Assembly (NCBI GenBank): GCA_963703275.1
Contig: OY969804.1
Span: forward strand, 2,963,154 to 3,027,153
Direction of reading: 5' to 3'
DNA from: an uncultured Actinomycetes bacterium
GTDB taxonomy: Bacteria; Actinomycetota; Thermoleophilia; Gaiellales; JAICJC01
DNA length: 64,000 bases
Under the pieces are notes generated by a model that did no database searches, was not told where the DNA came from, and saw only the letters and a program-made list of their open reading frames with translations. The position numbers and the translations under genes are program-made. Positions 23,809 through 60,919 of the stretch are shown one piece after another. The stretch's first letter is position 1. Every line of letters starts with the position of its first letter.

Positions 23809-23816
23809 CGGCCGTC

Positions 23817-25134: not shown

Positions 25135-25336
25135 GCGGGACAGAATACCCAAAATCCCACGCACGTAACCACGCCCGCGTCCTCGCGTAGGCGGGGGTCA
25201 GAGACTCGCTGGCCAGCGTCTCGGTGTGTGATTCCGAGGCGGCCGCCACGACCGACGCTGGCTGCGTGGGTCCGCGCCTCGTTCTTCGGCGAAAGGCGAC
25301 CGGGTACAGCTCAGCCGCGACACTAGAGCGGGGTAG

Positions 25337-25570: not shown

Positions 25571-25678
25571 GGTTTTTGCTCCCTTTCTCGTAAGTATGAG
25601 TCGTGTACCCGGCTCCCGGCCGGCGCAAACAGTCCCAAGACGCGGCGCGGCCTTTTGCTAGGGCCGCAAAGATTGCGA

Positions 25679-46689: not shown

Positions 46690-47445
46690 TCAGTACGTGG
46701 CACGCCCGCCGGAGATGTCGAAGGTCGCTCCAGTCGAGAACGACAGTCGTTCACTGGCGAGAAACGCCACGAGCTCTGCCACCTCGTCCACGTGACCCAT
46801 CCGACCAAGGGGGATACGCTCGAGCATATAGTCGATGTGCTCCTGGGAGATCTGCCCCAAGAGCGGTGTACGGATCACGGCCGGGGCGATGCAGTTGACG
46901 AGCACGCCGGTTCCGGCCACGTCCTTGCCGATCGCCTTGGTCATCGCGATCACCGCCGCCTTGCTGGCGGAGTAGGCGGTGGCCATGGGGTTTCCCTCCT
47001 TGCCCGCGATCGAGGCGATGTTCACGATCCGGCCGTAGCCGCGCTCGGTCATCCCGCCCAGCACCGCGCGATTCGCGTAGAAGACGCCGTCGCAGTTGAC
47101 CGCAAAGACGCGCCGCCACTCCGCGTCGGACACCTCGACGGTGTGCAGCGAATCGCCGCCGATCCCGGCCGAGCACACGAGCACGTCGATCGGCCCGAGC
47201 GCGGCTGAGGCCGCGGCCATCGCGGCGTCGACGTCGGCGGATGCGGTGACGTCTGCGCCCAGGCCCAGGGCCGCGTCGCCAATCCCGCGCGCACAGGCCT
47301 CGGCGGCCGCCGCGTCCAGGTCGATCAGCGCGACCTTCGCGCCCAGCCCCGCCAGGTGCGTGGCGCTCGCCAGGCCGATGCCACTCGCGCCGCCCGTAAC
47401 GGCGGCGACCCGGCCGGCGAAGGGTTGAGACGTCGAATCAGGCAT
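46690..47445 (-). CDS. short-chain dehydrogenase/reductase (FabG-like)
   Basis: TGGASGIG, NIASIAG, YSASKAAV catalytic motif. Confidence 0.85.
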   Translation of the reverse strand: MPDSTSQPFAGRVAAVTGGASGIGLASATHLAGLGAKVALIDLDAAAAEACARGIGDAALGLGADVTASADVDAAMAAASAALGPIDVLVCSAGIGGDSLHTVEVSDAEWRRVFAVNCDGVFYANRAVLGGMTERGYGRIVNIASIAGKEGNPMATAYSASKAAVIAMTKAIGKDVAGTGVLVNCIAPAVIRTPLLGQISQEHIDYMLERIPLGRMGHVDEVAELVAFLASERLSFSTGATFDISGGRATY

Positions 47446-47451
47446 GGGCGG

Positions 47452-48795
47452 TCATCCTTTCCGGAAGTGCTCCGCGGAACCGGAGCGAGTTTGCATTGGT
47501 GACGCCTCACGAGGAGGTGCGGAGACCGCGCCGGCGCCGGCATAGGTAGCATGATCGCCCTCGCGGGCTTCGATTTGCAGTAGCCGGTTCCACTTCGCGA
47601 GGCGTTCTGACCTGGTCAGCGAACCAACCTTGATTTGTCCGGCGCTCCAGGCGACCGCGAGGTCGGCAACCCAGGAGTCTTCGGTATCACCGGAGCGAGC
47701 CGAGACGACGACGCCGTACCCCTGCGCCTGAGCGGATCGCGCGACGTCTTCAGCTCGCGAAAGCGACCCGGCCTGGTTGGGCTTGACCAGCACCGCGTTC
47801 GCGATGCCCCGCTCGCACCCGGCTCGGAGCCGTTCGAGGTTCGTGGCAAACAGGTCATCACCGACCAGCTGGACGCCTGCCAGGACCCCAGTGGCCGCTT
47901 CCCAGCCGGCCCAGTCCCGGTCGCCCAGAGGATCTTCGATCGAAAGGATTGGAAACTCTACTCGCCACCGGTTGATCTCGTCGATCAGTCCGGCGCTGGT
48001 GAGTTGGCGATCCTCGAGGCCCAGGCGGTATCCGCCGCCCGACTCCAACTGATTGGCCGCAACATCGATGGCGATGGCGACGTCGACCCCCGGGTCGAAC
48101 CCCGCCGCCTCGATCGCGTCGGTAACCAGTTCAAGCGCTCGGCGGTTGCTTCCGAGCCTCAATCCGAGCCCCCCTTCGTCGGCAACGAGATCCGTGCGCA
48201 AACCCGAGCGGGTTGCGAGTCTGACCGCGGCGGCCCGCACTCGCGAGACGTGTTCGATCGCGTCGGAGAACCGGCGGGCCGCGAGCGGAATCACAAGCAC
48301 GTCCTGCAGGTCGAGCGCACCGGCGGCATGGGCTCCGCCCGAGAGGATGTTGACCATCGGCAGTGGCAAGAGCGGCGGCGTGCCTTTCGGCGCGATCTGA
48401 TACAGCTCGAGTCCGCGACTGCGGGCGTTCGCGAGTGCCCATGCAACCGAAAGCGCCAGAACCGCATTGGCGCCGACGTGTGACAGATTCGGGCTCCCGT
48501 CGGCCTCGACCAACGCGGCGTCGAGCTCGTGCTGATTCTCGAACCGACGACCGGCGATTGCAGGCAGAAGGATGTTGTTTAAATTCTCGACCGCGCGTTG
48601 CACTCCGAGCCCTCCGAACCTCTCGCCGCCATCGCGGAGCTCGGTCGCCTCGTACCGTCCGGTGGAAGCGCCGGACGGCACGGTGGCTGCGCCGGTCGCA
48701 CCTGACTCGAGTCGCAGCTCACAGCCGACGGTCGGCCTGCCGCGAGAATCCAGCGCTTCCCATGCGAGACCGCCAGCGACGACCGGCGCGCTCAC
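47452..48795 (-). CDS. enolase-family protein (divergent phosphopyruvate hydratase paralogue)
   Basis: SGASTG, GGAHA, ADEGG, AIDVAA, SIEDP, VGDDL, VKPNQAG and QIKVG are retained. SHRSGETED is SARSGDTED and QEFMI is QDVLVI. GTG 48795 overlaps the kinase stop. Confidence 0.8.
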   Translation of the reverse strand: MSAPVVAGGLAWEALDSRGRPTVGCELRLESGATGAATVPSGASTGRYEATELRDGGERFGGLGVQRAVENLNNILLPAIAGRRFENQHELDAALVEADGSPNLSHVGANAVLALSVAWALANARSRGLELYQIAPKGTPPLLPLPMVNILSGGAHAAGALDLQDVLVIPLAARRFSDAIEHVSRVRAAAVRLATRSGLRTDLVADEGGLGLRLGSNRRALELVTDAIEAAGFDPGVDVAIAIDVAANQLESGGGYRLGLEDRQLTSAGLIDEINRWRVEFPILSIEDPLGDRDWAGWEAATGVLAGVQLVGDDLFATNLERLRAGCERGIANAVLVKPNQAGSLSRAEDVARSAQAQGYGVVVSARSGDTEDSWVADLAVAWSAGQIKVGSLTRSERLAKWNRLLQIEAREGDHATYAGAGAVSAPPREASPMQTRSGSAEHFRKG

Positions 48796-49793
48796 GGGGC
48801 TCCTGCCATCCTTGCACGTTCGCACAGTTGCCCGACGGACCCGCATGGGTCGAGCAGCAACCGCCGTCCCAGCTCGCGAGCGACGTCCCGCTCGACGGGC
48901 GTGAGGTACTCGGCCGGAGATTTCCCGTCCACGCGGGCGAGCATCAGGCATCCGACTTCCGCGGAGATCTCGTCGACGGGCTCGAGAAGCCGCGCGTCGA
49001 CCGCCTCCCGGTAGGCCATGAGGAACTGCTCGACGCAGCAATGGTATTGGGCCACGAGACCAGGATTGTGGATGGCCTTCAGCAGCAGATGGTTGACCAT
49101 GAACGCGGTGTCGAACAACGGACTCCCGATGTGTGCGACCTCCAGATCGATAATCCAGCGTCCCGTCGGCCCCACCAGGACGTTCTTGGGCGCAAAGTCA
49201 CCGTGGACGAGGCACCGCCGATCCTGGTTGAGCCGGTCGATGCGCGTCTCGATCGCGGCGGCCACCTCTGGCCGACGGGCCGCCGTGGTTCGGTAGTACG
49301 GGTCGATTCGGAGCTGGGTGAAGACGTCTCGATCCGCGAACGCACGTCGCACCGCTTCGTCATCGAGAGAGCACGAGTGGAGGCGCCCCAGAGCCTTGCC
49401 GAGAAAGCGGGCGGTGGCGGACTCCACGACTCCGTCCATCAGATCCTGCTTCCAACTCCTCCAGTCGCGCGGGGCACACTCGATGGTAATGACGTTTGCT
49501 TCGCGATCCACGTCGAGCACCAACGGCACCGTGCCGGGCAGGATCCGGGCCATGATCCGAAGCGCGGCCGCCTCGTTCACCACCCGTCCGACGGGCGCCA
49601 TCCACTCGTCGGCAACCTGTAGCCGGGGGCGCGCCTGCTTGGCCACCAGCCGGCGCCCGCTGGCGGATTCGACCCTCAGGACCACACACGAGACTCCTCC
49701 GCCGAGCTCCTCGACCGTGGCCGCATCGGAGGCGTGGAGCTGCCCCCTCGCGACGAGGTATCGAACCACGGATTGTGGGGCGAGCAGCATCAC
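48792..49793 (-). CDS. MtnK-like / aminoglycoside-phosphotransferase-fold kinase
   Basis: VEELGGGVSCVVLRV, LVAKQARPRLQVADEWMAPVGRVVNEAAAL and Brenner-type LVHGDFAPKNVLV...IIDLE. Overall pattern recalls 5-methylthioribose kinase. Confidence 0.65.
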   Translation of the reverse strand: MMLLAPQSVVRYLVARGQLHASDAATVEELGGGVSCVVLRVESASGRRLVAKQARPRLQVADEWMAPVGRVVNEAAALRIMARILPGTVPLVLDVDREANVITIECAPRDWRSWKQDLMDGVVESATARFLGKALGRLHSCSLDDEAVRRAFADRDVFTQLRIDPYYRTTAARRPEVAAAIETRIDRLNQDRRCLVHGDFAPKNVLVGPTGRWIIDLEVAHIGSPLFDTAFMVNHLLLKAIHNPGLVAQYHCCVEQFLMAYREAVDARLLEPVDEISAEVGCLMLARVDGKSPAEYLTPVERDVARELGRRLLLDPCGSVGQLCERARMAGAP

Positions 49794-49848
49794 GGGCCGC
49801 CTCGCGGGTGACGGGTTCGACCGGCGAAAGGGGCCATCACAGCGGTGC

Positions 49849-49877
49849 TTGACAACCCGATGCCGAGAGCCTAGAGT
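49849..49877 (+). promoter_or_regulatory. sigma-70-like promoter TTGACA-17 nt-TAGAGT
   Basis: Perfect -35 at 49849-49854, 17-nt spacer, -10 TAGAGT at 49872-49877. Lies about 65 nt upstream of the MR/MLE gene. Confidence 0.45.
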
Positions 49878-49944
49878 CGCCTATAAGTTTCAATGAGAGT
49901 GGAGTCTACACCCTGTCGTTCCTCGTCCCGAGGTGGTGTGGCCG

Positions 49945-51120
49945 GTGCGTGTCGAGCACGTTGATCTGACGTTTTTGAACCTCCCGCTCGTGCGTCCAGA
50001 GGTGTGGACATGGGGCAGCCGGTCGTCCTACACAGTTGGGTTGGTCGAGGTGCAGACCGACGTCGGGGTCGTCGGTTTGGGAGAGGTCAACGTCTGTATG
50101 GGCCCCAACCCGGCGGTGATCGCAGCCATGTGCGACCAGTTGTCGGAAAGCCTGATCGGTGAGTCAGCGCTGGCACCCCAGAGGTTCCTCAGTCGTGTGC
50201 TCGGGCTCGGCTGGTATCCGTTCCATCGCACCTGCGCGCTCGTGCTGGGCGGAATCGAGATGGCGCTCTGGGACGCGATGGGCAAGCACCTCGGGCAGCC
50301 GATCTCAACGCTCTTCGGTGGTTCGCTACGCGAGAGCTTCAACTCGATGTACTACGTGCAGTCGCAGGAGAACCTCGCCGACATGGTCGGCCAGGCTTGC
50401 GAGGCGGTTGGGCGCGGGTTCGACACCATCTACTTCAAGGTGGGCATCGGCGAGCAGCGCGACGTCGAGCTGGTGGCATTGATGCGCGAGGGCCTGGGAG
50501 CTGGGCCAAAGATCCGGGTCGACTCGAACGAGGCCTGGAGTCCGGGTACGGCGGTGCGGATCCTCCGCCAGATGGCGCCCTACACGATCGAATACATCGA
50601 GCAGCCCGTGTCGATGTTCGACATCGACGGTATGGCGCACGTGCGAGCCGCGAGCGGCGTTGCGGTCGCCGCCAACCAGACCTCATGGGGGCCGCAGTCA
50701 ATCATGGAAGTGATCCGTCGCAACGCGGCCGACGTGATCATGACCGACCCCCATCAGGAAGGCGGCCTGATCCCGTTCAAAAAGGCGCTAACGGTATGTG
50801 AGATGGCCGGAGTGCCGTTCGTCGTCCACGCCTTCAATGCGACGACCATGTCGTTGCTCGCAGACGTGCAGGTGATGAGCACCTCGACCGCACCGATCCT
50901 GGCCCAGCAGGGCCATCCCGACTTCCTGGCCGACGACTACGTCACTGAACCGCTCGACTACGCCGGCGGCCAGATCCCCGTGCCGCAGCGGCCGGGGATC
51001 GGCGTTGAAATCGACCGCGACAAGCTTGCCCGATACCACGCCCAGTTCCTGGAGGAAGGAATGGCGTCGATCTACCCGCTCTCAACCGAGGCACCGGCGA
51101 TCTATGTCCCTGCGTACTAG
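49945..51120 (+). CDS. enolase-superfamily enzyme, mandelate racemase/muconate lactonizing (MR/MLE) type, copy 1
   Basis: GIEMALWD, YFKVGIG, RVDSNEAW, YIEQPV. GTG 49945 (VRVEHVDL) preferred, preceded by GAGGTGG. The ORF itself opens at 49933. Confidence 0.8.
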   Translation: MRVEHVDLTFLNLPLVRPEVWTWGSRSSYTVGLVEVQTDVGVVGLGEVNVCMGPNPAVIAAMCDQLSESLIGESALAPQRFLSRVLGLGWYPFHRTCALVLGGIEMALWDAMGKHLGQPISTLFGGSLRESFNSMYYVQSQENLADMVGQACEAVGRGFDTIYFKVGIGEQRDVELVALMREGLGAGPKIRVDSNEAWSPGTAVRILRQMAPYTIEYIEQPVSMFDIDGMAHVRAASGVAVAANQTSWGPQSIMEVIRRNAADVIMTDPHQEGGLIPFKKALTVCEMAGVPFVVHAFNATTMSLLADVQVMSTSTAPILAQQGHPDFLADDYVTEPLDYAGGQIPVPQRPGIGVEIDRDKLARYHAQFLEEGMASIYPLSTEAPAIYVPAY

Positions 51121-51139
51121 CGCCCTGCCGGTCGCGCGT

Positions 51140-51745
51140 CTAGAACGATGGGGGGCACACGATGAAGAGCGCGATCGCAGGCGTGCTGCTGACGACCTCA
51201 CAGCGGTGTGGCAGACGGGCGTCGAACGTGATCAGATCCCCGGCCTCCAAGTCGTACACCTCATCGCCCACCTGAAGGCGGACGCTGCCGGCGAGGATGT
51301 AGTTGGCCTCCTCCCCGGCATGGGCGCGTGCCTCGCGAGTGTTCGACCCGCCGGGCGGGAGCGCCCAGCGGCCGACCTCGAACGCACCATCGAACGAGGG
51401 CGACAGCAACTGGAACTCGAGGAACTCGGGAAGCCCGAGATCAATGGCCTCTCCGGAGCGCACAACGCGTGCGGCGGCCCGGCCGGCAAGCAGCTGGAAC
51501 GGAGCCGTCCCGAGCACCTCGGCGATGTTTCGGAGGGAGTCCAACGAGGGCGCAGCAAGGCCGCGTTCGACCTGGCTGAGCAGGCTGACCGAAATCGCCG
51601 CCTGGCCCGCGACGTCAGAGAGCGTACGACCCTGCTGGTGGCGGAGTTTCCTGATCGCCGAACCAAGGTTTCGACGCTCCGCGGCGCGGGCCCAATCGCG
51701 GCCATCGCCCTGCGGGACGCTTCTTCCCTCGGCGATGTCTGCCAT
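51140..51745 (-). CDS. XRE-family HTH plus cupin-domain transcriptional regulator (PuuR-like architecture)
   Basis: HTH LGSAIRKLRHQQGRTLSDVAGQAAISVSLLSQVERG. C-terminal cupin HAGEEANYILAGSVRLQVG. Confidence 0.8.
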   Translation of the reverse strand: MADIAEGRSVPQGDGRDWARAAERRNLGSAIRKLRHQQGRTLSDVAGQAAISVSLLSQVERGLAAPSLDSLRNIAEVLGTAPFQLLAGRAAARVVRSGEAIDLGLPEFLEFQLLSPSFDGAFEVGRWALPPGGSNTREARAHAGEEANYILAGSVRLQVGDEVYDLEAGDLITFDARLPHRCEVVSSTPAIALFIVCPPSF

Positions 51746-51801
51746 GACCCCATCTTAGACGAGCAACCCTCGCCTACAAGCCACCACGAGGAGGATTCGC
51801 G

Positions 51802-53451
51802 ATGAGTTCTGAAGCTGAAACCGGCGGTCCCGGCGTTTCAACGCCCCTCCCGGTGTTCACCCGGAAAGCAACCGGGCTTGTGCGCGAGGTTACCGCCCTC
51901 GACATGGTGCTCTACAACGCCGCGTCGACCTCCCCGATCGGCCTCGTACTCGTGTTCGGCCTGTTCGCTCTGGTGCTGTTCCCGCGGTCCAACTTCTATC
52001 TCGCAATGCTGATCGCCGTCGCCCTCGGAACGGCGGTGTGGACGACGTTCGCTCTGATCAGTGCCGCGATTCCGCGGATCGGTGGTGACTACACATTCAA
52101 CTCCCGGATATTGCATCCGTGGGTCGGCATGGCGGGCTCGCTCTGCGTCCTGATCTCATCGGCTCTGTGGACGGGAATCTTCTGTTATTTCTTTGTCGCC
52201 CAGGGGCTCTCGCCGATCTTCACGGTCATCGGTGCCACTTCCCACTCGCAACGGATCACCAACTGGGGTACGTACTTCTCGGCCGAGCACCAAACCGTCT
52301 GCTTCATCGGCGGCGTGATTGCGTTGGCCCTAATGGCACTTCTCTCCTCACTCGGCACGCACGTCGTCATCCGGACGATGTCAATACTGCTCCTGGTCGC
52401 CGTCGCCGGCTTTGCGATCGACATCCTCATCCTGCTCTTCACAAGCCACACCAGCTTCATCCACACCGTCAACTCGGTCGCCGGTCACAACGCGTACCAG
52501 AAGACCGTTGCGGCCGGAAAGAGCCAGGGCATCTACCCATCTCAAGGCGGATACTCGTCCTCGAACACCCTGGGCGCGATCTACTACGCCTTCACGGTCA
52601 CCATCTTCTGCTTCTGGGGTACGTACATGGCCTCGGAGTTCAAGGGCGCCGGTCGGCGCAAGCGCCAGCTGTCTGTGATGTTGGGAGCGGGTATCGGTCA
52701 AGGCTTGCTGGCACTGATCGCGATTGTCGTGTTCCTGCACACGGTCGGCTACGACTTTTTCGCATCCGCACTCAACGGGAACTACACGGGCACGGGTGGG
52801 GGAACCATCGGCCAGGTCGGCTACGGGTACTTCTCGGCGCTGGTTTCGGGAAACACCTTCTTCGTCACGATCCTCGGTCTGACGTTTCTCGGCTGGTGGC
52901 TGCCGTCGAGCTATTGCAACTCCTCGGTCGTCCAGCGGTACTTCGTCTCGTGGGCGCTCGATGGCCTGCTCCCGTCCAGGCTCGCCAACGTGGATGAGCG
53001 CCGGCACACGCCGATCGTCGCGATCGTCGTCACCTTTGTCCTGTCGGTCGTCGGTGTCGCCTGGACCGCATACAGCAGCACCTTCTTCCAGGTTTTCGCC
53101 TTCGGCACGATGTTCGCGTTCTTCCCGATCGTGCTGGTTGGGATCTCGGGGGCCGTGATGAAGTGGCGCCGGCCCGACCTGTACAAGGGGTCACCCGCCG
53201 AGTGGCGACTGTTCGGCATCGAGGTGTTGCCGATCGCCGGAACGATCTGTTTCCTGGTCGGCTGCTTCGCGATTGGGCTCGTGCTCCACTTCCACACCCA
53301 GCTCGGAATCACCAAGTACTTCACCTATGTCTGGGCGGGGCCCCTGATTGTCTTCATCGTCGCGGCGGTCTGGTGGTTCGTCGCCAAGGCGGTTCAATCG
53401 AGCCGCGGTGTTGACCTGACGCTCGCCTACAAGGTGATTCCGCCAGAGTGA
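51802..53451 (+). CDS. APC superfamily amino acid/polyamine-type permease
   Basis: 549 aa with 12-14 TMS. The N-terminal region (FTRKATGLVREVTALDMVLYN, then IPRIGGDYTF) is typical of APC permeases. Confidence 0.75.
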   Translation: MSSEAETGGPGVSTPLPVFTRKATGLVREVTALDMVLYNAASTSPIGLVLVFGLFALVLFPRSNFYLAMLIAVALGTAVWTTFALISAAIPRIGGDYTFNSRILHPWVGMAGSLCVLISSALWTGIFCYFFVAQGLSPIFTVIGATSHSQRITNWGTYFSAEHQTVCFIGGVIALALMALLSSLGTHVVIRTMSILLLVAVAGFAIDILILLFTSHTSFIHTVNSVAGHNAYQKTVAAGKSQGIYPSQGGYSSSNTLGAIYYAFTVTIFCFWGTYMASEFKGAGRRKRQLSVMLGAGIGQGLLALIAIVVFLHTVGYDFFASALNGNYTGTGGGTIGQVGYGYFSALVSGNTFFVTILGLTFLGWWLPSSYCNSSVVQRYFVSWALDGLLPSRLANVDERRHTPIVAIVVTFVLSVVGVAWTAYSSTFFQVFAFGTMFAFFPIVLVGISGAVMKWRRPDLYKGSPAEWRLFGIEVLPIAGTICFLVGCFAIGLVLHFHTQLGITKYFTYVWAGPLIVFIVAAVWWFVAKAVQSSRGVDLTLAYKVIPPE

Positions 53452-54425
53452 GCGGACTGTTTCGACGTCGCGCTCGCCCGGAGGGCGTCAGGATCTTCTT
53501 CGCCACGGATGTGCACGGCTCGGACCGATGCTTCAAGAAGTTCATCGGTGCCGCCAAGTTCTACAACGCGAGGTATTTGATATTGGGAGGCGATATCACG
53601 GGGAAGACATTGGTGCCGGTCGAGCGCACGACGCGGGGATGGACTGCGCGGTTCGGCGATCACACCTACATCGATATGACCGACAGCGAACGGCGTGATC
53701 TCGAACAATCCATCCGTGACAACGGCCAGTACCCGATCGAGGGCGAACGCGATGTGTTGATGCAACTCCATGACGAGACACACCGCGAGATCGCGTTTCG
53801 CGCCGCCGTGGTCGACGGCATCCGGCGCTGGGTCGCCATTGCCGAGGAGCGGCTTGCCGGCACCGATGTGCGGTGCTTCATCACTCCCGGCAACGACGAC
53901 TACTGGGAAATCGATGAACCGCTCCAGGCCTCGAGCACGGTCGAGTTCGTGGAGGGCCGGTGCGTGCGACTGAACGATGATCACGAGATGATCACCACCG
54001 GCTACTCGAACATCACCCCGTGGCAGTCTCCCCGTGAGATCTCCGAGCCGGAGTTTTCCAAGCTACTCGAGGGGATGTTCACCGAGGTGGCCGACCCGGA
54101 GAACCTCATCTGCGTCTTTCACCCGCCCCCCTACGACACCGACCTCGATCAGGCACCGGCGATCGACTCGGAGTTCCGGATGCAGATGTCCGGTGGGGCG
54201 CCCAAGATGATTCCGGTCGGCTCGACCGCCGTCCGCGCGTTCATCGAGGAGCACCAGCCGTTGCTGGCCCTTCATGGGCACGTGCACGAGTCCAAGGCCG
54301 CCCAGCGGATCGGGCGCACGCTCTGCCTCAACCCCGGTTCGGAGTATCCCGAGGGTGTGCTGAGTGGAGCGCTCGTGACGGTGGGGGCGCGGGAGGTCAC
54401 CGCCCACCAGTTCACGCTCGGCTAA
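53448..54425 (+). CDS. metallophosphoesterase (calcineurin-like)
   Basis: Motifs ATDVHGS, GGDITGK, TPGNDD, LHGHVHES. GTGA overlap with the permease stop. Confidence 0.7.
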   Translation: MSGLFRRRARPEGVRIFFATDVHGSDRCFKKFIGAAKFYNARYLILGGDITGKTLVPVERTTRGWTARFGDHTYIDMTDSERRDLEQSIRDNGQYPIEGERDVLMQLHDETHREIAFRAAVVDGIRRWVAIAEERLAGTDVRCFITPGNDDYWEIDEPLQASSTVEFVEGRCVRLNDDHEMITTGYSNITPWQSPREISEPEFSKLLEGMFTEVADPENLICVFHPPPYDTDLDQAPAIDSEFRMQMSGGAPKMIPVGSTAVRAFIEEHQPLLALHGHVHESKAAQRIGRTLCLNPGSEYPEGVLSGALVTVGAREVTAHQFTLG

Positions 54426-54440
54426 GGAGGCGAGGATCAG

Positions 54441-55550
54441 ATGATCACACGGGACGAGTATCCCCACCGAGTCGAGCGGCTTCGGGTTGGAATCGAGCGC
54501 CTCGGCGTGGATGAGGCCGTCCTGGACGGCGCCGACCATGTCACCCACCTGTGCGGTTACTCCCGCTACCTGGCCGGGCCGAGCGTTGTCGTGCTCACAC
54601 GGGACGGACGGAGGGTGTTGATCGTTCCACGCTACGAGTTCGAGGCAGCCGCGCACGGCGCCCAGGCGGACGATGTGATCGCCTACGGGGACGAGGAGTT
54701 TCTCGACTTCGATCCGGCGCCCTTGATCGCCCGGGCCTGCCGGTCGGTGCTCGCGTCCCCGGTTGTCGGCGTGTGCGGAATCGCTCCCGGGCTGGCTGCG
54801 GCGCTCGGCGATGTGGGTGTCGAGGGGACCGACGTTGCCGGCCCTGTGACCGAGGTGCGGCTCGTCAAAGACGGCGACGAGCTCGTCGCGATGGCGGAGT
54901 CTCGGGTGCACGCGCTCAGAGGGCAGGACGCGATTGACGCACGCGCCAAGCCCGGCGAGCGTGATCTCGACCTCTTCACGGCCGCCTGGTCGGCCGCCCA
55001 GACGAGTGCCGGCGTCCCGGTCGAATTTGTCGGAAGCGTCGCGAGCGGCGCCCACACCGCCGAGGTGGCGCCGCCGGTATACGTGCCCGGCGCCAAACAG
55101 GTAGAGCCCGGCGATCCGCTCCTCTCCGATGTTGCGGTGCGCGTCAACGGGTACTGGAGCGACACGACCCGGACAACGATCGTGGGGGAGAACGACGAGG
55201 CGACCGCAGTCCGCGACGAGATCGCCGCGATCCTGGAACGCTCCGTCGGCCAGATGCGTACGGGAATCCCGGTGAGCGAGTTCTACGGCCACCTTCGTGA
55301 CCAGATCAGCGACCGCTTCCCCGACGGGTGGTTTCCTCACCACGGGGGGCACAGTCTCGGGCTCTCGGTCGGGGAGAACCCTCAGATCATCCCCACGGAG
55401 CATTCGGTGATGCGGCACGGCATGGTGTTCGCGGTTGAGCCAGGGGTGTATTTCCCCGCCCGGTTCGGCGTCCGCGTCGAGGACATGTACCGAGTCACCG
55501 ACGGAGGCGGCGTCCGCATCGACATCGCTGCCGCAGGGGCGTCGGCATGA
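54441..55550 (+). CDS. M24 family metallohydrolase (Xaa-Pro peptidase / creatinase-like)
   Basis: Metal-ligand contexts LSDVAVRVNGYWSDTTRT, HHGGHSLG, VFAVEPGVY, VRVEDMY. Confidence 0.8.
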   Translation: MITRDEYPHRVERLRVGIERLGVDEAVLDGADHVTHLCGYSRYLAGPSVVVLTRDGRRVLIVPRYEFEAAAHGAQADDVIAYGDEEFLDFDPAPLIARACRSVLASPVVGVCGIAPGLAAALGDVGVEGTDVAGPVTEVRLVKDGDELVAMAESRVHALRGQDAIDARAKPGERDLDLFTAAWSAAQTSAGVPVEFVGSVASGAHTAEVAPPVYVPGAKQVEPGDPLLSDVAVRVNGYWSDTTRTTIVGENDEATAVRDEIAAILERSVGQMRTGIPVSEFYGHLRDQISDRFPDGWFPHHGGHSLGLSVGENPQIIPTEHSVMRHGMVFAVEPGVYFPARFGVRVEDMYRVTDGGGVRIDIAAAGASA

Positions 55551-56725
55551 GGGTCGAGCGACTCGAGACGATCGTGGTGAGTGTCCCCTATCGCCATCGA
55601 GAGGTGAGCGCGCAGGTCGAACGGGATGGTGTAACCGACGTGCTGGTGAAGCTCACAACCACGGATGGGATCACGGGTTGGGGAGAAGCCCCGAGCGGGG
55701 CGGATGTCACCAGCGTTGAGAACGCCATCCAAGCGATGGCGCCATTTGTGATCGACCGCAGCCCCTGGGACGGCGAGGCGATTCGAGGGGAGCTGTACCA
55801 GCACGGGCTATGGCAGTTCCGGCCGATGACCGGGAACTTCGCCTGGGCCGGGATCGACATGGCGCTGTGGGACATCTGCGGCAAGGCGGCCCAGCTTCCG
55901 ATCCACCGCTTCTTTGGCAGTCTCCGCCGCGAGAACGTCGACTATTTCTACTACCTCGCCCGCGGCGACCGTGAGGATCTGACGGCGCAGTGCAAGCAGG
56001 GCTTGGCGGCCGGCTACTCGGTGTACTACCTCAAGGTCGGCATCGATCTGAACGCCGAGCTGGCGATGGTCGACGCGATCCGAAGCGCGCTCGGGCCGGG
56101 GCCCCGGATCCGCCTTGATGCCAATGCGGCCTGGAGCGCTTCGGAGGCACTCCGCAACCTCGAGCAGTTCGCCGTGTACGACATCGACTTTGTCGAGCAG
56201 CCGGTGCGCGAATCGCCGATCCGCCAGATGGCGGAGCTGCGCGGCCGGTCCCCGATCCGCATCTGCGCCAATGAGGGCCTGTGGACTGAGGATGACGCCT
56301 ACGCGAGGATCACGCAGCGCGCCGCCGACCTGATCTGCTTCAGCCCGTACTGGGTGGGCTCGCTGCGAGCGTTTTCGCGGATCTCCCACCTCGCCCAGCT
56401 GGAAGGTCTGGGGGTGTGCAAACACACCCACGGCGAACTCGGAATCGCCGCCGCAGCCTGCCATCAGGTGCTGCTCACGCTGCCCAGCATCGAGAAAGGG
56501 AACCAGCAGACCGCGCAGTTGATGATGAGCGATGTTCTGGCGCACCCTCTGCCGATCGCCACCGGGCCCTCCTGGGGCGTACCGGACGAACCGGGACTGA
56601 GCATCGTCATCGACGACGACGCTGTGGCGGATGCAGCCGAGCGCTACCGGCTTGATGGCCCGTTCCTTCCCTACCAGCTTCCTCACTCCCGGCGCGCATC
56701 GCCTGCGCCAAGCCGTGTGAGCTAG
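55547..56725 (+). CDS. enolase-superfamily enzyme, MR/MLE type, copy 2
   Basis: GIDMALWD, YYLKVGID, RLDANAAW, FVEQPV. ATGA overlap with the M24 gene. Paralogous to copy 1. Confidence 0.8.
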   Translation: MRVERLETIVVSVPYRHREVSAQVERDGVTDVLVKLTTTDGITGWGEAPSGADVTSVENAIQAMAPFVIDRSPWDGEAIRGELYQHGLWQFRPMTGNFAWAGIDMALWDICGKAAQLPIHRFFGSLRRENVDYFYYLARGDREDLTAQCKQGLAAGYSVYYLKVGIDLNAELAMVDAIRSALGPGPRIRLDANAAWSASEALRNLEQFAVYDIDFVEQPVRESPIRQMAELRGRSPIRICANEGLWTEDDAYARITQRAADLICFSPYWVGSLRAFSRISHLAQLEGLGVCKHTHGELGIAAAACHQVLLTLPSIEKGNQQTAQLMMSDVLAHPLPIATGPSWGVPDEPGLSIVIDDDAVADAAERYRLDGPFLPYQLPHSRRASPAPSRVS

Positions 56726-57036
56726 GGTTGCTCTTGGCCGATGTCCTCGTACAGTCCGGCGTCACAATCGACGACGCTCAGCCACAGGTCGATGTTCGCA
56801 GCGGCCTCGGGGTCCCGTCGCCGCTGCTCGTTCCACTCGTCGAGCCGCGCGGCCGAATCGATCTCCCAGATATTGATGTACTGGGGACCGCCGAGCCGCC
56901 AGGTGCGCCCGATGGAAAGGGTCGGACGATCCTGCGGATTCGCATTCGCCCAGTACGCATCGGTGCGCCTGATGGTTTCATGAAACACCTGCGGGTCAAC
57001 GTTCGGTTTCCGTGAATAGAACTCTATGTAGTACAT
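56722..57036 (-). CDS. hypothetical small protein
   Basis: 104 aa from ATG 57036 (MYYIEFYSRKPNVD...). The ORF extends to 57075, but that ATG sits inside a TATAAT box. Confidence 0.45.
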   Translation of the reverse strand: MYYIEFYSRKPNVDPQVFHETIRRTDAYWANANPQDRPTLSIGRTWRLGGPQYINIWEIDSAARLDEWNEQRRRDPEAAANIDLWLSVVDCDAGLYEDIGQEQP

Positions 57037-57073
57037 ACGCGATGTCCCTTTCATCTCCGTCGAACGTTTGTAC

Positions 57074-57083
57074 ATTATAGAAT
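57074..57083. promoter_or_regulatory. overlapping divergent -10 elements in an AT-rich patch
   Basis: Minus strand reads TATAAT (57079-57074). Plus strand reads TAGAAT (57078-57083). The surrounding 23 nt (57066-57088) have only 5 G/C. Confidence 0.35.
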
Positions 57084-57130
57084 AAAAGCGGCGGGCTCTT
57101 CAACCCGCCAAGAGGTGGTGGCAGCCTGAA

Positions 57131-57514
57131 GTGTCTGAGTACAATGACTACACCATAAGGATCGAGCAGGGACGACCGTTCGATGCACTGGGTGCACCCG
57201 TGCGGCGGTTGGTACATCCGAACACCGTGGGCTCACACCTGCTGGGCGTGTCGATCTGCCTGATGGAGCCGGGCGACCGAATCCGCGCGCACTCGCATGA
57301 CTATGAAGAGGCGTACTTCGTGCTGCGCGGGCGAGGGGTGATGACGCTTGAGGGCGTCGGAGAGATCCGGCTCGAGCCCGAGCTCACGGTGTACGTCCCA
57401 CCGGGCCGGGTGCACGGTCAGGTGAACGATGGCGACGAACCGCTCCACATCGTGCTCGCGCTCGCGCCGCCGCCGGTGGAAGGCGATCCCCCACGCTTCG
57501 CGGACGAGTCGTGA
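57131..57514 (+). CDS. cupin domain protein
   Basis: Cupin motifs HSHDYEEAYFVLRG and VYVPPGRVHG. GTGA overlap with the transketolase N subunit. Confidence 0.7.
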   Translation: MSEYNDYTIRIEQGRPFDALGAPVRRLVHPNTVGSHLLGVSICLMEPGDRIRAHSHDYEEAYFVLRGRGVMTLEGVGEIRLEPELTVYVPPGRVHGQVNDGDEPLHIVLALAPPPVEGDPPRFADES

Positions 57515-58341
57515 CCGACCCTGACCGGATCCGGGAGAAGGCGCGGTTTGCGCGCGAAGAGACCATTCGGCTGATCCAGGTCGCGAAGGTGGGGCATTTC
57601 GCCTCGTCATTCTCATGTGCGGAGATCCTGGCCACGCTCTACTACGGCGTGATGCGCCTGCGCCGAGGTGAGCCGGACTGGCCCGGCCGCGACCGGTTCC
57701 TGTTCGGCAAAGGCCACGCGGCGGTCGCGCTCTATCCAATACTGGCTGACTGGGACTTCATCGAAGATGACGTCTTGGACAGATACACCCGGCTGGGGAA
57801 CCCGCTGGGCGATCACCCCGACATGACCCGGGTGCCGGGTATCGACTTCAGCTCTGGCTCGCTTGGGCATGCGCTCTCGGCCGGCCTGGGTATGGCGCTT
57901 GGCAGCCGCTTCCACCGCCGGCCGTTCAACGTTTTCGTGCTGATGGGCGACGGCGAGCAGCACGAGGGGCAGGTGTGGGAGGCCGCGATGTCCGCAGCTC
58001 ATCATGGTGTGAGCAACCTGATCGCGATCATCGACCGAAACCAGTACTCACTCGACGGAAAGGTCGACGACGTGATCGGGATCGAGCCGCTGGCCGCCAA
58101 GTGGCGTGCCTTCGGCTGGAACGTGTCCGAGGTTGACGGCCATGACGTTGACCAGCTCTTGCCGACCCTGGCGGGTCTGGCCGCCGGCGCCGCCTCAGGC
58201 CGAGCCCCGTCGCTCGTGATCGCTCACACCGTCAAAGGGAAGGGCGTTCCGTTCATGGAGTCGGAGCTGGGATGGCACCTCGGTTACCTGACGCCCGCCG
58301 ACGCGAAGTACGCGCTCGAGCAGATCCGGGGGCAGCCGTGA
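57511..58341 (+). CDS. transketolase, N-terminal (TPP-binding) subunit
   Basis: GHFASSFSCAEILATLYY, SGSLGHALSAGLGMA, VLMGDGEQHEGQVWEA, IIDRNQYSLDG. Confidence 0.85.
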   Translation: MTDPDRIREKARFAREETIRLIQVAKVGHFASSFSCAEILATLYYGVMRLRRGEPDWPGRDRFLFGKGHAAVALYPILADWDFIEDDVLDRYTRLGNPLGDHPDMTRVPGIDFSSGSLGHALSAGLGMALGSRFHRRPFNVFVLMGDGEQHEGQVWEAAMSAAHHGVSNLIAIIDRNQYSLDGKVDDVIGIEPLAAKWRAFGWNVSEVDGHDVDQLLPTLAGLAAGAASGRAPSLVIAHTVKGKGVPFMESELGWHLGYLTPADAKYALEQIRGQP

Positions 58342-59312
58342 GTGTGCATCAACTCGACGAGGGATCGTGGCATCTTCTGATGCTGCTCGACCAAGCCCCG
58401 GGGTTCGTCGTTCTTGCCGACGTGCTGGGCGATCTCGCGGATGAGGGCCACCCGATTGTGGTGTGCACCGCCGATTTGGGGCACTCAAATGGCCTCGTTC
58501 GCTTTCACGAGCGGCATCCGGACCGGTTCTTCCAGTTTGGGATCTCCGAGCAGAACATGGTGACCGCGTCGGCTGGGTTGGCCACCACTGGGCTGCGACC
58601 GTATGTGGCCACGTTCGCATCGTTCCTGGCCCTGCTCTGTTGCGAGCAGATCCGCACCGACGTCGCGTACACAAGACAACCTGTGAGGCTGATCGGCCAC
58701 CACTCGGGGATTACGCTGGGGTTCTACGGCACGTCTCACCATGCGACCGAGGATCTCGCAATCACCCGGTCGATCGCCGGACTCTCGGTCGTCGCCCCGG
58801 CCGACTCGACCTCGATGGCCGCAGCATTCAGAGCCACCGTCGACCACGACGGCCCGATCTACTTCCGGATCGGACGGGGTCGAGATCCACAGGTATACGA
58901 GACGGTCGACTTCACCCTGGGCAAGGCCATCCCCCATGGAGTGGGAGCAGACCTGACGATCATCGCCACCGGTTCCATGGTGCACGACTCGCTCGCCGCC
59001 GCAGCGACACTGCGGGAGGACGGTCACTCGGTCGGAGTGCTCGACATGCACACCATCAAACCGCTCGATGTGGAAGCGATCGCCGCCGTTCGATCACCGC
59101 TCATCCTGACCGTGGAGGAGCACAACATCCTCGGCGGGTTGGGCGGCGCGGTGGCAGAGGTACTCGCCGAGGGCGGTACCGGCGTGCGACTCGTCCGCCA
59201 CGGAATCCGCGACGAGTACAGCCTGATCGGACCACCCACACACCTCTACGCGCACTACGGACTCGACGCCGAGGGCATCGCCAACGCCGCGCGCTCCGCT
59301 CTGACAGCTTGA
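58338..59312 (+). CDS. transketolase, C-terminal (pyrimidine-binding) subunit
   Basis: FFQFGISEQNMVTASAGLA and HATEDLAITRSIAGL. The GTG 58338 start overlaps the upstream TGA. Confidence 0.85.
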   Translation: MSVHQLDEGSWHLLMLLDQAPGFVVLADVLGDLADEGHPIVVCTADLGHSNGLVRFHERHPDRFFQFGISEQNMVTASAGLATTGLRPYVATFASFLALLCCEQIRTDVAYTRQPVRLIGHHSGITLGFYGTSHHATEDLAITRSIAGLSVVAPADSTSMAAAFRATVDHDGPIYFRIGRGRDPQVYETVDFTLGKAIPHGVGADLTIIATGSMVHDSLAAAATLREDGHSVGVLDMHTIKPLDVEAIAAVRSPLILTVEEHNILGGLGGAVAEVLAEGGTGVRLVRHGIRDEYSLIGPPTHLYAHYGLDAEGIANAARSALTA

Positions 59313-59394
59313 GGTGCCCTGACCGCCCAAGACGGCGGCGAATCAGGCATGGGCGCGCCTAGGTTACCGCTGGAGCCGTTCGTATACTGGCGGG

Positions 59395-59940
59395 ATGCCC
59401 GGCGTGGCGTTCGTCGCCCACTGTCTGCTCAACCAGAACGCGAAGACGGATGGCGGCGCGCTGTGCCCCGGCGTCTATTCCCCGCTGGTCGACGAGCTGC
59501 GGTCGCGCGGCTGGCGCATCGAGCAGATGCCCTGCCCGGAGCTCGCATTCACCGGCCTCCACCGCTTCTGGGCCGTGCGGGAGCAACTGGACACCACGGC
59601 GTATCGACGCCACTGCCGCCGGATCGCCGGCGCTGTGGCCGGGGCAATCGAGCTCCACGTGCAGCGCGGTGACGACGTGATCCTGGTCGGGCTCGAGGGC
59701 AGCCCGTCGATGGGCGTTCACGTCACCAGCTCGGATCCCGAACGGGGCGGCCGCCCGATCTGGCCCGAGGGGACGGACGAGCTCTCCCCGGGCAGCGGCA
59801 TCTTCATCGAGGAGCTGGCGGCCGAGCTGTCCGAGCGAGGCGTCGCCACACCGCGGGCCATGGGCATCTCGCACCAGCTGCCCGATCACGACCCGGCGGG
59901 CGAACGGGCGGCGCTCGCCGACCTGATGGCCGGGCGGTAG
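59395..59940 (+). CDS. hypothetical protein, DUF523-like (tentative)
   Basis: FVAHCLLNQNAKTDGG ... QMPCPELAFTGL loosely recalls the DUF523 CLLG..VRYDG ... CPE pattern. Confidence 0.4.
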   Translation: MPGVAFVAHCLLNQNAKTDGGALCPGVYSPLVDELRSRGWRIEQMPCPELAFTGLHRFWAVREQLDTTAYRRHCRRIAGAVAGAIELHVQRGDDVILVGLEGSPSMGVHVTSSDPERGGRPIWPEGTDELSPGSGIFIEELAAELSERGVATPRAMGISHQLPDHDPAGERAALADLMAGR

Positions 59941-60282
59941 GTGGAGGGCGATCAGCGCGGGTTCCGGGTGGCGCTCGTCACGAGCGAACTGCTGAACCCA
60001 GCCGCCGGTGGTCTCGACGCGCTGGCCGTGCTGGAGCAGGAGGACTGGGGAGCCATCCAGCTCCCCGCCGCCGACTATCCCGACGTGGTCGCCGGCCCGC
60101 TGCTCGACCAGGTCGCCGAGCAGGCCGAGGAGTTCGCCCGGCACGGGTATCGCCTGGCGCTGGTGGGGCGCCGGGCCGGCCTCGCGGAAGCGCTCGCACG
60201 CCACGGAGTTGAGGTTCCACCGGCCATCGAGCCTTCCAGCACCGAGGAGCTGCGCAGCTTCCTGGCCCGCCTGGGCGGGTGA
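59941..60282 (+). CDS. hypothetical protein
   Basis: 113-aa ORF starting at the GTG immediately after the upstream TAG. Coding-like composition, no motif. Confidence 0.35.
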   Translation: MEGDQRGFRVALVTSELLNPAAGGLDALAVLEQEDWGAIQLPAADYPDVVAGPLLDQVAEQAEEFARHGYRLALVGRRAGLAEALARHGVEVPPAIEPSSTEELRSFLARLGG

Positions 60283-60445
60283 ATGCGATGGCCACCCGCA
60301 TGCGCGTTCTCGTCGGAAAAGTGCAGTAGAACCTCCCAGTCGAGATCCGTGTTCTCCCGGATTCGGCGGCACCGTTTCCCGGCGAGGATGCGGTTACCCG
60401 GCTGCGACTGTGCCGGGCGTCGAAGCACCAATACGGAGGTACCCC

Positions 60446-60919
60446 ATGTTCTCGAAGATTGTCCTGGCACTCGACGGCTCGGAGCCGTCGGAGCGCGCGA
60501 TCCCTGTTCTCCACGAGCTGGTCGACGGCGGCAATGCCCGCATCGACGTCGTGCACGTCCGCCAGCTCATGGTGGGACGGGCGGGCGGCCAGCCGCTCCA
60601 CGCTGACGAAGACGAGATCACCGAGCGGGTGCGGGCGCGCGCCAAGGACCTGGCCGACGCGGGCTTCGACGTCCACGTTCATATCGAGTCCACCGTCGGC
60701 GACGGCCCGGCACATCTGATCGCCGAGATCGCCGCCAAGGTCGGGGCCGACGTGATCCTCATCGGAACACGTGGCCACACGCCGCTGGCCGGGCTGCTCA
60801 TCGGATCCGTGACCCAGCGGCTCCTGCTGATCGCAACCTGTCCCGTCCTGTCGGTCCCCACGGGCGGCACGAGTCCCGCAGCCCGCGGAACCGAGCGGGT
60901 CGCCGCGACCGCGTCCTGA
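60446..60919 (+). CDS. universal stress protein (UspA family)
   Basis: MFSKIVLALDGSEPSERA and C-terminal ILIGTRGHTPLAGLLIGSVTQRLL. GGAGG RBS. Confidence 0.85.
   Translation: MFSKIVLALDGSEPSERAIPVLHELVDGGNARIDVVHVRQLMVGRAGGQPLHADEDEITERVRARAKDLADAGFDVHVHIESTVGDGPAHLIAEIAAKVGADVILIGTRGHTPLAGLLIGSVTQRLLLIATCPVLSVPTGGTSPAARGTERVAATAS

Follow-up and report, generated by a model that had tools for sequence, protein, structure and literature searches.

A conserved, modular gene cluster in an uncultured actinomycete, tentatively read as a catabolic island for an amino-acid-like sugar acid and carrying a kinase linked to a variant enolase

The window analysed here is a 64,000-nucleotide stretch of contig OY969804.1 from an uncultured actinomycete, and the subject is a cluster of enzyme, transport and regulatory genes at positions 46690 to 59312 of that stretch. 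In order of position, the cluster consists of a short-chain dehydrogenase/reductase (SDR), an enolase and an APH/MtnK-like kinase (unit 1); a first member of the mandelate racemase/muconate-lactonizing enzyme family, MR/MLE-1 (unit 2); an XRE-cupin regulator (unit 3); an APC permease, a metallophosphoesterase (MPE), an M24 metallohydrolase and MR/MLE-2 (unit 4); a small divergent open reading frame (ORF); and a cupin followed by a split transketolase (unit 5). Five junctions between its genes are translationally coupled, nine of its genes recur together in a second lineage, and the set is not a chance neighbourhood. The cluster is tentatively read as a modular catabolic island for the uptake and degradation of a polyhydroxylated amino-acid-like acid, for example an amino-sugar acid or a conjugate, a substrate that we infer from the partners of its genes. 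Its most novel element is the pair formed by the kinase and a variant enolase.

Gene calls in the window were checked by ORF listing and translation and by Pfam and NCBIfam scans. An earlier sequence-only reading had described twelve genes, or fourteen with two tentative downstream ORFs, as one novel pathway. All twelve genes and their domains were recovered at or near the positions proposed, and the set matched no named pathway: only the enolase reached an NCBIfam equivalog, and literature searches were without a match. As to a single pathway of 12 to 14 genes, units 2 to 5 are indeed conserved and unmatched, but unit 1 is separately mobile and the two tentative ORFs were excluded. Translational coupling, which had been claimed from four 4-nt overlaps, is borne out by such overlaps, and their count is five: GTGA at kinase/enolase, APC/MPE, cupin/transketolase N half (TK-N) and TK-N/transketolase C half (TK-C), and ATGA at M24/MR/MLE-2. 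The enolase start, a GTG at 48795, overlaps the kinase stop. The promoter proposed ahead of MR/MLE-1 could be read from the sequence as a predicted sigma-70-like site on the plus strand (49849-49877), with TTGACA (49849-49854), a 17-nt spacer and TAGAGT (49872-49877), within a 139-bp divergent intergenic region.

Searches for conservation were seeded on four genes, namely those for the MPE, MR/MLE-2, M24 and the split transketolase. A near-identical cluster was found in CAVSYD010000007.1, 'uncultured Actinomycetes bacterium MFD05521.bin.2.135' (L003), at 93-100% amino acid identity, with the exception of TK-C, whose best segment was 63%. Co-occurrence elsewhere, which the sequence-only reading had left as a check, was confirmed for units 2 to 5 in a second lineage at 58-84% identity and in the same order. 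This lineage is represented by soil-metagenome contigs (L095-97), on which nine genes of these units retain the order and strands of the window, with overlapping junctions (MR/MLE-1 78%, XRE-cupin 81%, APC 84%, MPE 72%, M24 58%, MR/MLE-2 73%, cupin 73%, TK-N 68% and TK-C 73%). In the position divergent from MR/MLE-1, locus L095 has not SDR-enolase-kinase but a PfkB kinase gene, an Eda-type aldolase gene and a small-ORF homologue. The best match of the PfkB kinase is 2-keto-3-deoxygluconate/2-keto-3-deoxygalactonate (KDG/KDGal) kinase at 280 bits, and that of the aldolase is Eda, the KDPG (2-keto-3-deoxy-6-phosphogluconate) aldolase, at 153 bits; these two genes occur only in the syntenic L095-97 and not in the window. 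The twelve genes are thus not a single fixed unit, since unit 1 is absent from the syntenic cluster and replaced there by a KDG/KDGal-type kinase and a KDPG-type aldolase. Taken together, the evidence supports a stable core of MR/MLE-1 and M24, to which the small ORF and an SDR are often added; an uptake module of APC and MPE, replaced by MFS or ABC transporters in relatives; an extension made up of MR/MLE-2, cupin and split transketolase, possibly with a D-serine-dehydratase-like (DSD-like) enzyme encoded further downstream; and an interchangeable lower module, which is SDR-kinase-enolase here and, in the sister lineage, KDG(al) kinase with KDPG-type aldolase.

Unit 1 is an independently mobile module, which haloarchaea, Proteobacteria, Bacteroidota and other Actinomycetota carry in sugar-acid contexts. 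Searched by tblastn against plasmids, the kinase matched 46 records (34-44% identity). Twelve loci were examined (L083-L089 and L120-L124); these come from Halomarina, Haladaptatus, Rhodococcus opacus, Roseibium, Burkholderia pseudomallei, Methylobacterium nodulans, Rhizobium indicum, Paraburkholderia, Azospirillum, Embleya, Cupriavidus and Persicobacter, and so span Halobacteria, Actinomycetota, Alpha- and Betaproteobacteria and Bacteroidota. A variant enolase lies at most 7 kb from the kinase homologue in 12/12 loci and adjoins it in nine. The kinase family (735 representatives at E<=1e-30) includes single-chain fusions of kinase and enolase (P0278, P0415), a fusion of a D-2-hydroxyacid dehydrogenase with the kinase (P0366), and fusions of the kinase with a PEP_hydrolase-like part or with a sugar kinase. 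In Embleya (L122) the order kinase-enolase-SDR matches that of the window. More generally, the pair is accompanied by FAH hydrolases, SDRs, CtBP-type dehydrogenases, MR/MLE and UxuA dehydratases, DHDPS or HpcH aldolases and sugar transporters, with an FAH hydrolase and an SDR adjoining it in Roseibium, B. pseudomallei and R. opacus.

Two of these contexts are of separate note. On the Rhizobium indicum plasmid pPR12A204 (L089, 6133-10963), the kinase shares one gene string with phosphoenolpyruvate (PEP) carboxylase and a CtBP-type 2-hydroxyacid dehydrogenase; the variant enolase and a cupin are 5 kb off, and this layout resembles a serine-cycle arrangement. The Halomarina (L083, 6498-9845) and Haladaptatus (L084, 7231-8925) plasmids carry extra TCP-1/cpn60 (thermosome) paralogues directly beside kinase-enolase, an odd location for chaperonin genes, inside a sugar-acid cluster.

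The enolase (47452-48795, minus strand, 447 aa) scored 424.8 bits on TIGR01060, for which the equivalog cut-off is 300, and the closest PDB enolases matched at E 1e-108 to 5e-108. Its residues were numbered as in yeast and compared in an alignment of the window enolase, seven kinase-linked enolases and one canonical enolase. The Mg ligands Asp246, Glu295 and Asp320, the catalytic Lys345, Glu211, Lys396 and the Ser39 loop are all kept, and the motifs SGASTG, DEGG, (A/S)(I/L)D(V/I)A, SIED, GDD, KxNQ and (I/L)K(V/I)GS are present. Two positions are replaced: Glu168 by Asp (FQEFMI to LQDVLV) and His373 by Ala (SHRSGETED to SARSGDTED). The resulting motifs, xQD.. and SARSG(E/D)T, occur in 8/8 aligned variant enolases and at five further loci, and both substitutions were found in 12/12 kinase-linked enolases examined as well as in the window enolase. 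Glu168 and His373 flank the C3-hydroxyl side of 2-phosphoglycerate. Because an ordinary enolase suffices for 2-phospho-D-glycerate, the two conserved substitutions suggest a different substrate, which may be another stereoisomer or a longer molecule.

The kinase (48792-49793, minus strand; Pfam APH, E 3e-18) had been described as MtnK-like, which is correct for its N-terminal part, about residues 4-137; the likeness does not extend over the full length, with 56 bits on TIGR01767, over residues 4-135, against a cut-off of 275 and E 1.5e-5 to PDB 2OLC. In the simplest reading, it would be a 2-hydroxy-acid (glycerate-type) 2-kinase that passes its product to the dedicated enolase, yielding PEP. 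The SDR (46690-47445, minus strand; Pfam adh_short_C2, E 4e-54) is the final gene of the kinase-enolase-SDR operon and reached no NCBIfam equivalog. Methionine salvage was considered for this unit and rejected, since only the MtnK N-terminus is shared and no homologue of MtnA, MtnB, MtnC, MtnD or MtnW was found in the window.

The two MR/MLE proteins are paralogues with about 30% identity, and the nearest PDB match of both is 2PGW, an uncharacterised structure from S. meliloti (E 3e-55 each). Residues were mapped by alignment to the muconate-lactonizing enzyme 3I4K, to 4GGB and to 2OQH, and by inspection. MR/MLE-1 (49933-51120, plus strand; Pfam MR_MLE_N and MR_MLE_C) has Lys (YFK) at strand 2, Asp (MTD) at strand 6 and His (VVHA) at strand 7, with D, E and N as metal ligands; the dyad of strand-6 Asp and strand-7 His is common to 4GGB and 2OQH and differs from 3I4K. 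These residues are those of an MR-subgroup-like acid-sugar dehydratase or of the galactarolactone cycloisomerase type, and MR/MLE-1 is accordingly a candidate acid-sugar-type dehydratase or cycloisomerase, with all NCBIfam dehydratase equivalogs far under cut-off (galactonate dehydratase model, 112 bits vs 311). MR/MLE-2 (55547-56725, plus strand; assigned by Pfam) has Tyr-x-Lys, Ser at strand 6 in place of Asp or Lys, and the strand-7 His, and is a candidate epimerase or dehydratase for an alpha-substituted acid. The Lys-x-Lys motif and strand-6 Lys of MLE-subgroup racemases and epimerases (dipeptide epimerase, NSAR and HpbD type) are present in neither protein. Muconate cycloisomerase was rejected for both: neither has the MLE Lys pair, and their scores of 140-164 bits fall short of the cut-off, 335.

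The M24B prolidase-like metallohydrolase (54441-55550, plus strand; Pfam Peptidase_M24 and Creatinase_N) has all five metal ligands (D, D, H, E, E) and the Creatinase_N domain, with the motifs SD..., WSDTTRT, GHSLG, AVEPG and RVED, and its top PDB matches are Xaa-Pro peptidases (E 1e-26). An equivalog-level match to PepQ or PepP was not obtained, the best being PepQ_Arch at 85 bits vs a cut-off of 630. The ectoine (DoeA) or creatinase reading of this protein was rejected, its DoeA score being 30 bits where the cut-off is 575. The clade, found in clusters of sugar-acid type, is rare: 5.8e9 clusters contained 35 of its proteins at E<=1e-30. An MR/MLE gene is present in 5/5 contexts of M24 orthologues (>=48% identity); it adjoins M24 in L095, L113 and L117, is one gene off in L112, and in P0266 is on the other strand at a distance of about 1 kb. 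By tblastn, orthologues of MR/MLE-1 at 73-78% accompany the M24 orthologue in L095, L112 and L113. The MR/MLE proteins beside M24 in L117 (of equal length, 391 aa) and in P0266 (391 aa) are counted here as family members only. The gene order is GntR-APC-MR/MLE-1-MPE-M24 in L112; MR/MLE-1-M24 with Amidohydro_2, the small ORF (72%), RidA, a cupin, a glyoxalase and an MFS transporter in L113; small ORF-SDR-MR/MLE-M24 with a cupin, MFS, FGGY kinase and GFO/IDH/MocA genes and DeoC in L117; and DSD-like-M24-FmdA/AmdA with MR/MLE, SDRs, DAO, RidA and an apionate-lactonase-type gene in P0266. Relatives of M24 at 39-41% are still found with MR/MLE, SDR and sugar ABC transporters, and a metagenome scan seeded on M24 gave only relatives at 23-33%, beside two MR/MLE genes and an SDR. 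Distant plasmid matches, from Rhizobium, Halorussus and Fuscovulum, were uninformative.

The APC-superfamily permease (51802-53451, plus strand; Pfam AA_permease_2) and the 325-aa MPE (53448-54425, plus strand; a metallophosphoesterase-fold dinuclear hydrolase with a weak Pfam Metallophos match) are a conserved two-gene unit well beyond this cluster. A family search with the MPE returned >5800 homologues, and a genome scan yielded 80 loci from Actinomycetota, Chloroflexota, Proteobacteria, Nitrososphaerota, Bathyarchaeia and Thermoplasmata, against which all 15 window proteins were searched by tblastn. Outside the metagenome-assembled genome of the same species, the sole recurrent neighbour was an APC permease directly upstream, 48-53% identical in the seven closest loci and present in weaker form beside many distant MPEs; orthologues at 48-84% stand directly upstream of the MPE in L004-L010, L095 and L112. 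The pair is annotated in the cultured Thermomicrobium roseum (L127, TRD_RS12760/12765), followed by a nitrilase-type C-N hydrolase, and also in Halobellus limi; the loci of the two-gene unit further include L004-L082 and L128. The MPE motifs DxH (TDVHG), GD (GGDITG), GNDD, H (FHPPP) and GHxH (HGHVHE) are invariant in 35 homologues, and the two-metal motifs of the calcineurin-like superfamily are complete except that GNDD stands in place of GNHD (His to Asp). An AlphaFold2 (AF2) model with a pLDDT of 90 was matched to this fold by Foldseek, with the uncharacterised aq_1956 and TT1561 as top structural matches, and neither the sequence nor the fold search gave a characterised relative.

The 73% identical homologue of MR/MLE-2, P0122, occurs on 97 JGI soil contigs and is the MR/MLE-2 of L095-97, and orthologues at 63-65% (L098, L099, L125 and L126) stand without M24 and transketolase. 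A DSD-like pyridoxal phosphate (PLP) enzyme and an FmdA/AmdA amidase, with SDRs, accompany the gene in three of these four contexts (L099, L125, L126). L099 adds both a sugar-type ABC transporter and an XRE-cupin regulator, of which L125 has the former and L126 the latter; L098 has two M20 peptidases and a GntR regulator instead. A corresponding gene for a fold-type III DSD-like PLP enzyme (62331-63464, plus strand; Pfam Ala_racemase_N and D-ser_dehydrat) is present in the window, 3 kb past the end of the cluster as first drawn, and is 55-59% identical to the genes beside MR/MLE-2 in L125, L099 and L126; it may be a functional, outlying member of the system. In L126 (3914-5055) the DSD-like gene is broken into several frames, by an assembly frameshift or as a pseudogene. 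The XRE-HTH and cupin regulator of the window (51140-51745, minus strand; Pfam HTH_31 and Cupin_2) has an 81% identical counterpart at the matching position in L095 and a 49% identical relative adjoining the MR/MLE-2 orthologue in L099, and is a probable ligand-sensing repressor of the flanking operons.

The single-domain cupin (57131-57514, plus strand; Pfam Cupin_2, E 1e-15) gave weak Pfam matches to glucose-6-phosphate and mannose-6-phosphate isomerases, and in L095 its 73% identical counterpart overlaps the MR/MLE-2 stop; it is a putative isomerase, translationally coupled to the transketolase. The latter is split into a thiamine diphosphate-binding N half (TK-N, 57511-58341, plus strand; Pfam Transketolase_N, E 6e-36) and a half with the pyrimidine-binding and C-terminal domains (TK-C, 58338-59312, plus strand; Pfam Transket_pyr and Transketolase_C), separate but adjoining subunits coupled by GTGA. 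The halves scored 244 and 214 bits on the full-length model NF004559, which has a cut-off of 488. Orthologues of the transketolase at 63-68% occur on Rhodococcus, Mesorhizobium and Agrobacterium plasmids in unrelated contexts (TK-N 62-68%; TK-C 63-68%, adjoining TK-N in L092-L094), where they adjoin aminotransferases, SDRs or other MR/MLE genes. No homologue of the window cupin or MR/MLE proteins was found beside these plasmid transketolases, and the cupin query was without a match.

The small divergent ORF (56722-57036, minus strand, 104 aa), most likely starting at 57036 with MYYIEF, is a real conserved gene. Its homologues, at 35-72% in three related clusters, were always found within such clusters (L095 39%, L113 72%, L117 37%). 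Pfam and NCBIfam gave no match to it, nor did a four-sequence profile searched against PDB. A single-sequence AF2 model of low confidence (pLDDT 59) has a b-a-b-b-a-b pattern, and the Foldseek matches (ClcF, ABM family) all had E>0.06, so that a likeness to rhamnose mutarotase is at most conjectural; on this weak model, the fold is probably a ferredoxin-like alpha+beta fold.

The right end of the cluster is placed at 59312, since neither tentative downstream ORF follows the transketolase in L095, and their membership is not upheld. The first of them, 59349-59672, was in the wrong frame; the coding frame is 59395-59940 (plus strand), which encodes a TudS-related CD3072-family protein, a putative desulfidase with 108 bits on NF045597 against a cut-off of 130. 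The second, 59941-60282 (plus strand), has no family match and overlaps, in a different frame, an ORF at 60008-60919 (plus strand) with a C-terminal Usp domain (E 8e-23). On the left, a TadG-like Flp-pilus assembly protein with a VWA domain (45358-46668, plus strand) is convergent with the cluster and forms its boundary. The G+C content of the cluster, 0.653 against 0.675 for the window, is the lowest of any 12.6-kb stretch, mostly owing to the permease (0.615) and the small ORF (0.606). Of two 60-nt samples counted previously, 38/60 was correct, and that given as 36/60 is 35/60. Recent horizontal transfer was rejected as an explanation of the dip, the difference being too small. A second stretch of the window, 18000-26000, has equally low G+C (0.64-0.65), so that the dip is not unique.

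A polyhydroxylated alpha-amino acid or conjugate is preferred as the substrate because it best reconciles two kinds of recurring partner. Amino-acid-type partners in related clusters are APC, M24, DSD-like enzymes, RidA, DAO and amidases; those of sugar-acid type are dehydratase-like MR/MLE proteins, SDRs, lactonase-type hydrolases, KdgK/Eda, transketolase and kinase-enolase. The related M24/MR/MLE-1 clusters contain SDRs, Amidohydro_2, MFS or sugar ABC transporters, FGGY kinase, DeoC and GFO/IDH/MocA genes. In the proposed scheme, the XRE-cupin regulator would sense the compound and control the divergent promoters, and the APC permease would import it. The MPE and M24, as two dinuclear metallohydrolases, would then strip a phospho, acyl or aminoacyl substituent. 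MR/MLE-1, with its Lys and His/Asp set, would abstract the alpha-proton and eliminate the beta-substituent to give a 2-keto-3-deoxy acid, and MR/MLE-2 would epimerise a stereoisomer, probably together with the DSD-like PLP enzyme at 62331-63464. The cupin may convert an aldose-type fragment to a ketose, which the split transketolase would cleave to pentose-phosphate-pathway intermediates. The SDR would reduce or oxidise a C3-C4 fragment to a 2,3-dihydroxy acid of glycerate type, which the APH-type kinase would phosphorylate on O2 and the variant enolase would dehydrate to PEP or a PEP analogue. KDG(al) kinase and KDPG-type aldolase would take over the SDR-kinase-enolase step in the sister lineage.

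Several points weigh against this scheme. The window contains no aldolase or FAH-type C-C hydrolase to join the 2-keto-3-deoxy acid to the C3 acid, and with no C-C-cleaving enzyme the hand-over from upper to lower module is incomplete. The role of a cytosolic phosphoesterase directly after a permease is not obvious in it. The nine-gene synteny comes from one other population, L095-97 being near-identical contigs, and each module is also found without the others, so that the co-localisation may in part be recent rather than functional. With a score above the curated phosphopyruvate-hydratase threshold of TIGR01060, the enolase may simply be a second ordinary enolase. Finally, the substrate and the enzyme activities are deduced from sequence throughout.

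A stronger proposal, which we regard as doubtful, is that the kinase and variant enolase form an undescribed two-enzyme route to PEP or an analogue of it. The starting compound would be some 2,3-dihydroxy acid different from D-glycerate, such as L-glycerate or a C4 tetronate, and the remainder of the island would be an undescribed amino-sugar-acid-like pathway in which M24 and the APC-coupled MPE have new roles. The enolase subgroup is generally treated as single-function, and if the proposal were true, it would provide the first non-canonical substrate specificity within the enolase subgroup proper and a fourth, non-homologous class of glycerate-type kinase. Searches of the accessible literature on the kinase-enolase pair, on L-glycerate kinase, on 2PGW and on glucosaminate dehydratase gave no description of the systems considered here. 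Since soil Actinomycetota often carry catabolic islands without a known substrate, the cluster in itself is no surprise. It does, however, unite four conserved, uncharacterised pieces, namely the kinase with its variant enolase, the APC-linked MPE, the rare M24 clade and the small protein; APC permeases accompany the MPE family in lineages from Actinomycetota to Nitrososphaerota and Bathyarchaeia, and the rare M24 clade is tightly coupled to one MR/MLE clade. The exchange of kinase-enolase-SDR for KDG kinase and KDPG aldolase constitutes a natural experiment on the intermediate delivered by the upper pathway.

Plain catabolism of a nitrogen-free hexonate or uronate is an unlikely alternative. 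SDR and lactonase-type steps would feed MR/MLE dehydratases, KDG kinase with aldolase or else glycerate kinase with enolase would act on the products, and M24 and the MPE would be moonlighting or accessory. The dehydratase-type catalytic set of MR/MLE-1 fits this account, as do KdgK and Eda in place of unit 1 in L095, the occurrence of kinase-enolase inside classical clusters with dgoD, uxuA, DHDPS, FAH, lactonase and sugar ABC transporters, and the APC-MPE pairs of L007 and L010 that adjoin DHDPS, two MR/MLE genes, an SDR and LacI. It is weakened by an importer that is an APC amino-acid-type permease, by the peptidase-like M24 as the tightest partner of MR/MLE-1, and by the recurrence of RidA, DSD-like enzymes, DAO and FmdA/AmdA in related contexts.

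It is likewise improbable that only APC-(MR/MLE-1)-MPE-M24 is a pathway, with kinase-enolase-SDR and MR/MLE-2-cupin-transketolase serving unrelated ones. Such an accidental neighbourhood would explain why L112 holds only GntR-APC-MR/MLE-1-MPE-M24, why unit 1 is not in L095, and why transketolase orthologues (63-68%) occur without window cupin or MR/MLE homologues and MR/MLE-2 orthologues (63-65%) without M24 or transketolase. Against it stand the overlapping MR/MLE-2, cupin, TK-N and TK-C genes of L095, in a plus-strand string with APC-MPE-M24, the ATGA overlap at the M24/MR/MLE-2 junction of the window, and a lower-pathway module divergent from MR/MLE-1 in both lineages.

Catabolism of a peptide, a proline derivative or a betaine, with M24 a true Xaa-Pro dipeptidase and the MR/MLE proteins either hydroxyproline/proline-betaine-type epimerases or dehydratases or dipeptide epimerases, is considered quite improbable. 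Prolidases are the closest solved relatives of M24, and JGI labels relatives of MR/MLE-2 as L-Ala-D/L-Glu epimerase; neither MR/MLE protein, however, has the Lys-x-Lys and strand-6 Lys of MLE-type racemases. Genes of the 2PGW type are found in clusters for betaines or N-methyl amino acids, that of S. meliloti with a betaine ABC transporter, an Xaa-Pro peptidase family protein and an MttB-family methyltransferase, and that of Paracoccus adjoining sarcosine oxidase, but the window proteins are only 32-34% identical to them, and proline or betaine routes do not account for the KdgK/Eda, transketolase, SDR, lactonase-type and sugar-transporter partners. A biosynthetic cluster for a small natural product, suggested by the unusual, unmatched enzyme combination and by an APH-fold kinase that could be a resistance or tailoring enzyme, is hardly credible given the importer-type permease, the ligand-sensing XRE-cupin regulator, the substitution of KDG kinase and KDPG aldolase for unit 1, and flanks without a core biosynthetic enzyme (NRPS, PKS, terpene or RiPP).

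Comparison of the proposed amino-sugar-acid-like island with known systems gave partial likenesses. Like the DeLey-Doudoroff and semi-phosphorylative Entner-Doudoroff routes (DgoD, KDG(al) kinase and KDPG(al) aldolase), the L095 cluster has an MR/MLE gene divergent from a KDG/KDGal-type PfkB kinase and an Eda-type aldolase, and MR/MLE-1 has a dehydratase-like Lys/His-Asp set; unlike them, the window lacks this kinase and aldolase and has APC, MPE, M24, a second MR/MLE, a cupin and transketolase in addition. The window kinase shares the APH fold and N-terminal sequence likeness with MtnK (PDB 2OLC), but the match covers about 135 residues and the conserved partner is an enolase. Split transketolases are known from transketolase-dependent catabolic routes for apiose, for sulfoquinovose (sulfo-TK) and in 5-deoxyribose variants, and the window likewise has a TK-N/TK-C pair after a putative isomerase, the cupin, in a catabolic operon; the marker enzymes of the apiose, sulfoquinovose and deoxyribose routes are not in the cluster.

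In D-glucosaminate catabolism, D-glucosaminate(-6-P) ammonia-lyase yields KDG(-6-P), followed by KDPG aldolase (PMC9529869). The logic proposed here would be similar, an alpha-amino beta-hydroxy sugar acid giving a 2-keto-3-deoxy acid and then KDG kinase and KDPG aldolase acting in turn; that pathway, however, uses a phosphotransferase system and a fold-type I PLP lyase, whereas the cluster has APC, MR/MLE and a DSD-like enzyme of fold-type III. The window scans, which included no search aimed at Dga proteins, showed no homology to them. Non-phosphorylative sugar-acid pathways of the diketo-hydrolase (Route III) type combine an SDR 4-dehydrogenase with an FAH-family hydrolase, and the published routes end in glycolate or lactate, without a kinase or enolase (PMC6336799). 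Kinase-enolase elsewhere stands directly beside FAH and SDR genes, and an FAH-type hydrolase acting on a hexonate would release glycerate; the window differs in having no FAH gene. Glycerate 2-kinase and enolase form the end of glucarate/galactarate, tartrate, serine-cycle and non-phosphorylative Entner-Doudoroff routes, and glycerate kinases include the GarK/GlxK class I and TtuD/MOFRL class II enzymes (PMC2063504). The chemistry predicted for unit 1, from a 2-hydroxy acid through a 2-phospho acid to an enol phosphate, would be the same, and the module has 2-hydroxyacid dehydrogenases, FAH hydrolases and PEP carboxylase as neighbours, as well as fusions of 2-hydroxyacid dehydrogenase and kinase. 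The window kinase nevertheless has an APH/MtnK fold, outside all three known glycerate kinase classes, and is served, unlike ordinary glycerate 2-kinase systems, by a dedicated enolase paralogue with Glu168Asp and His373Ala.

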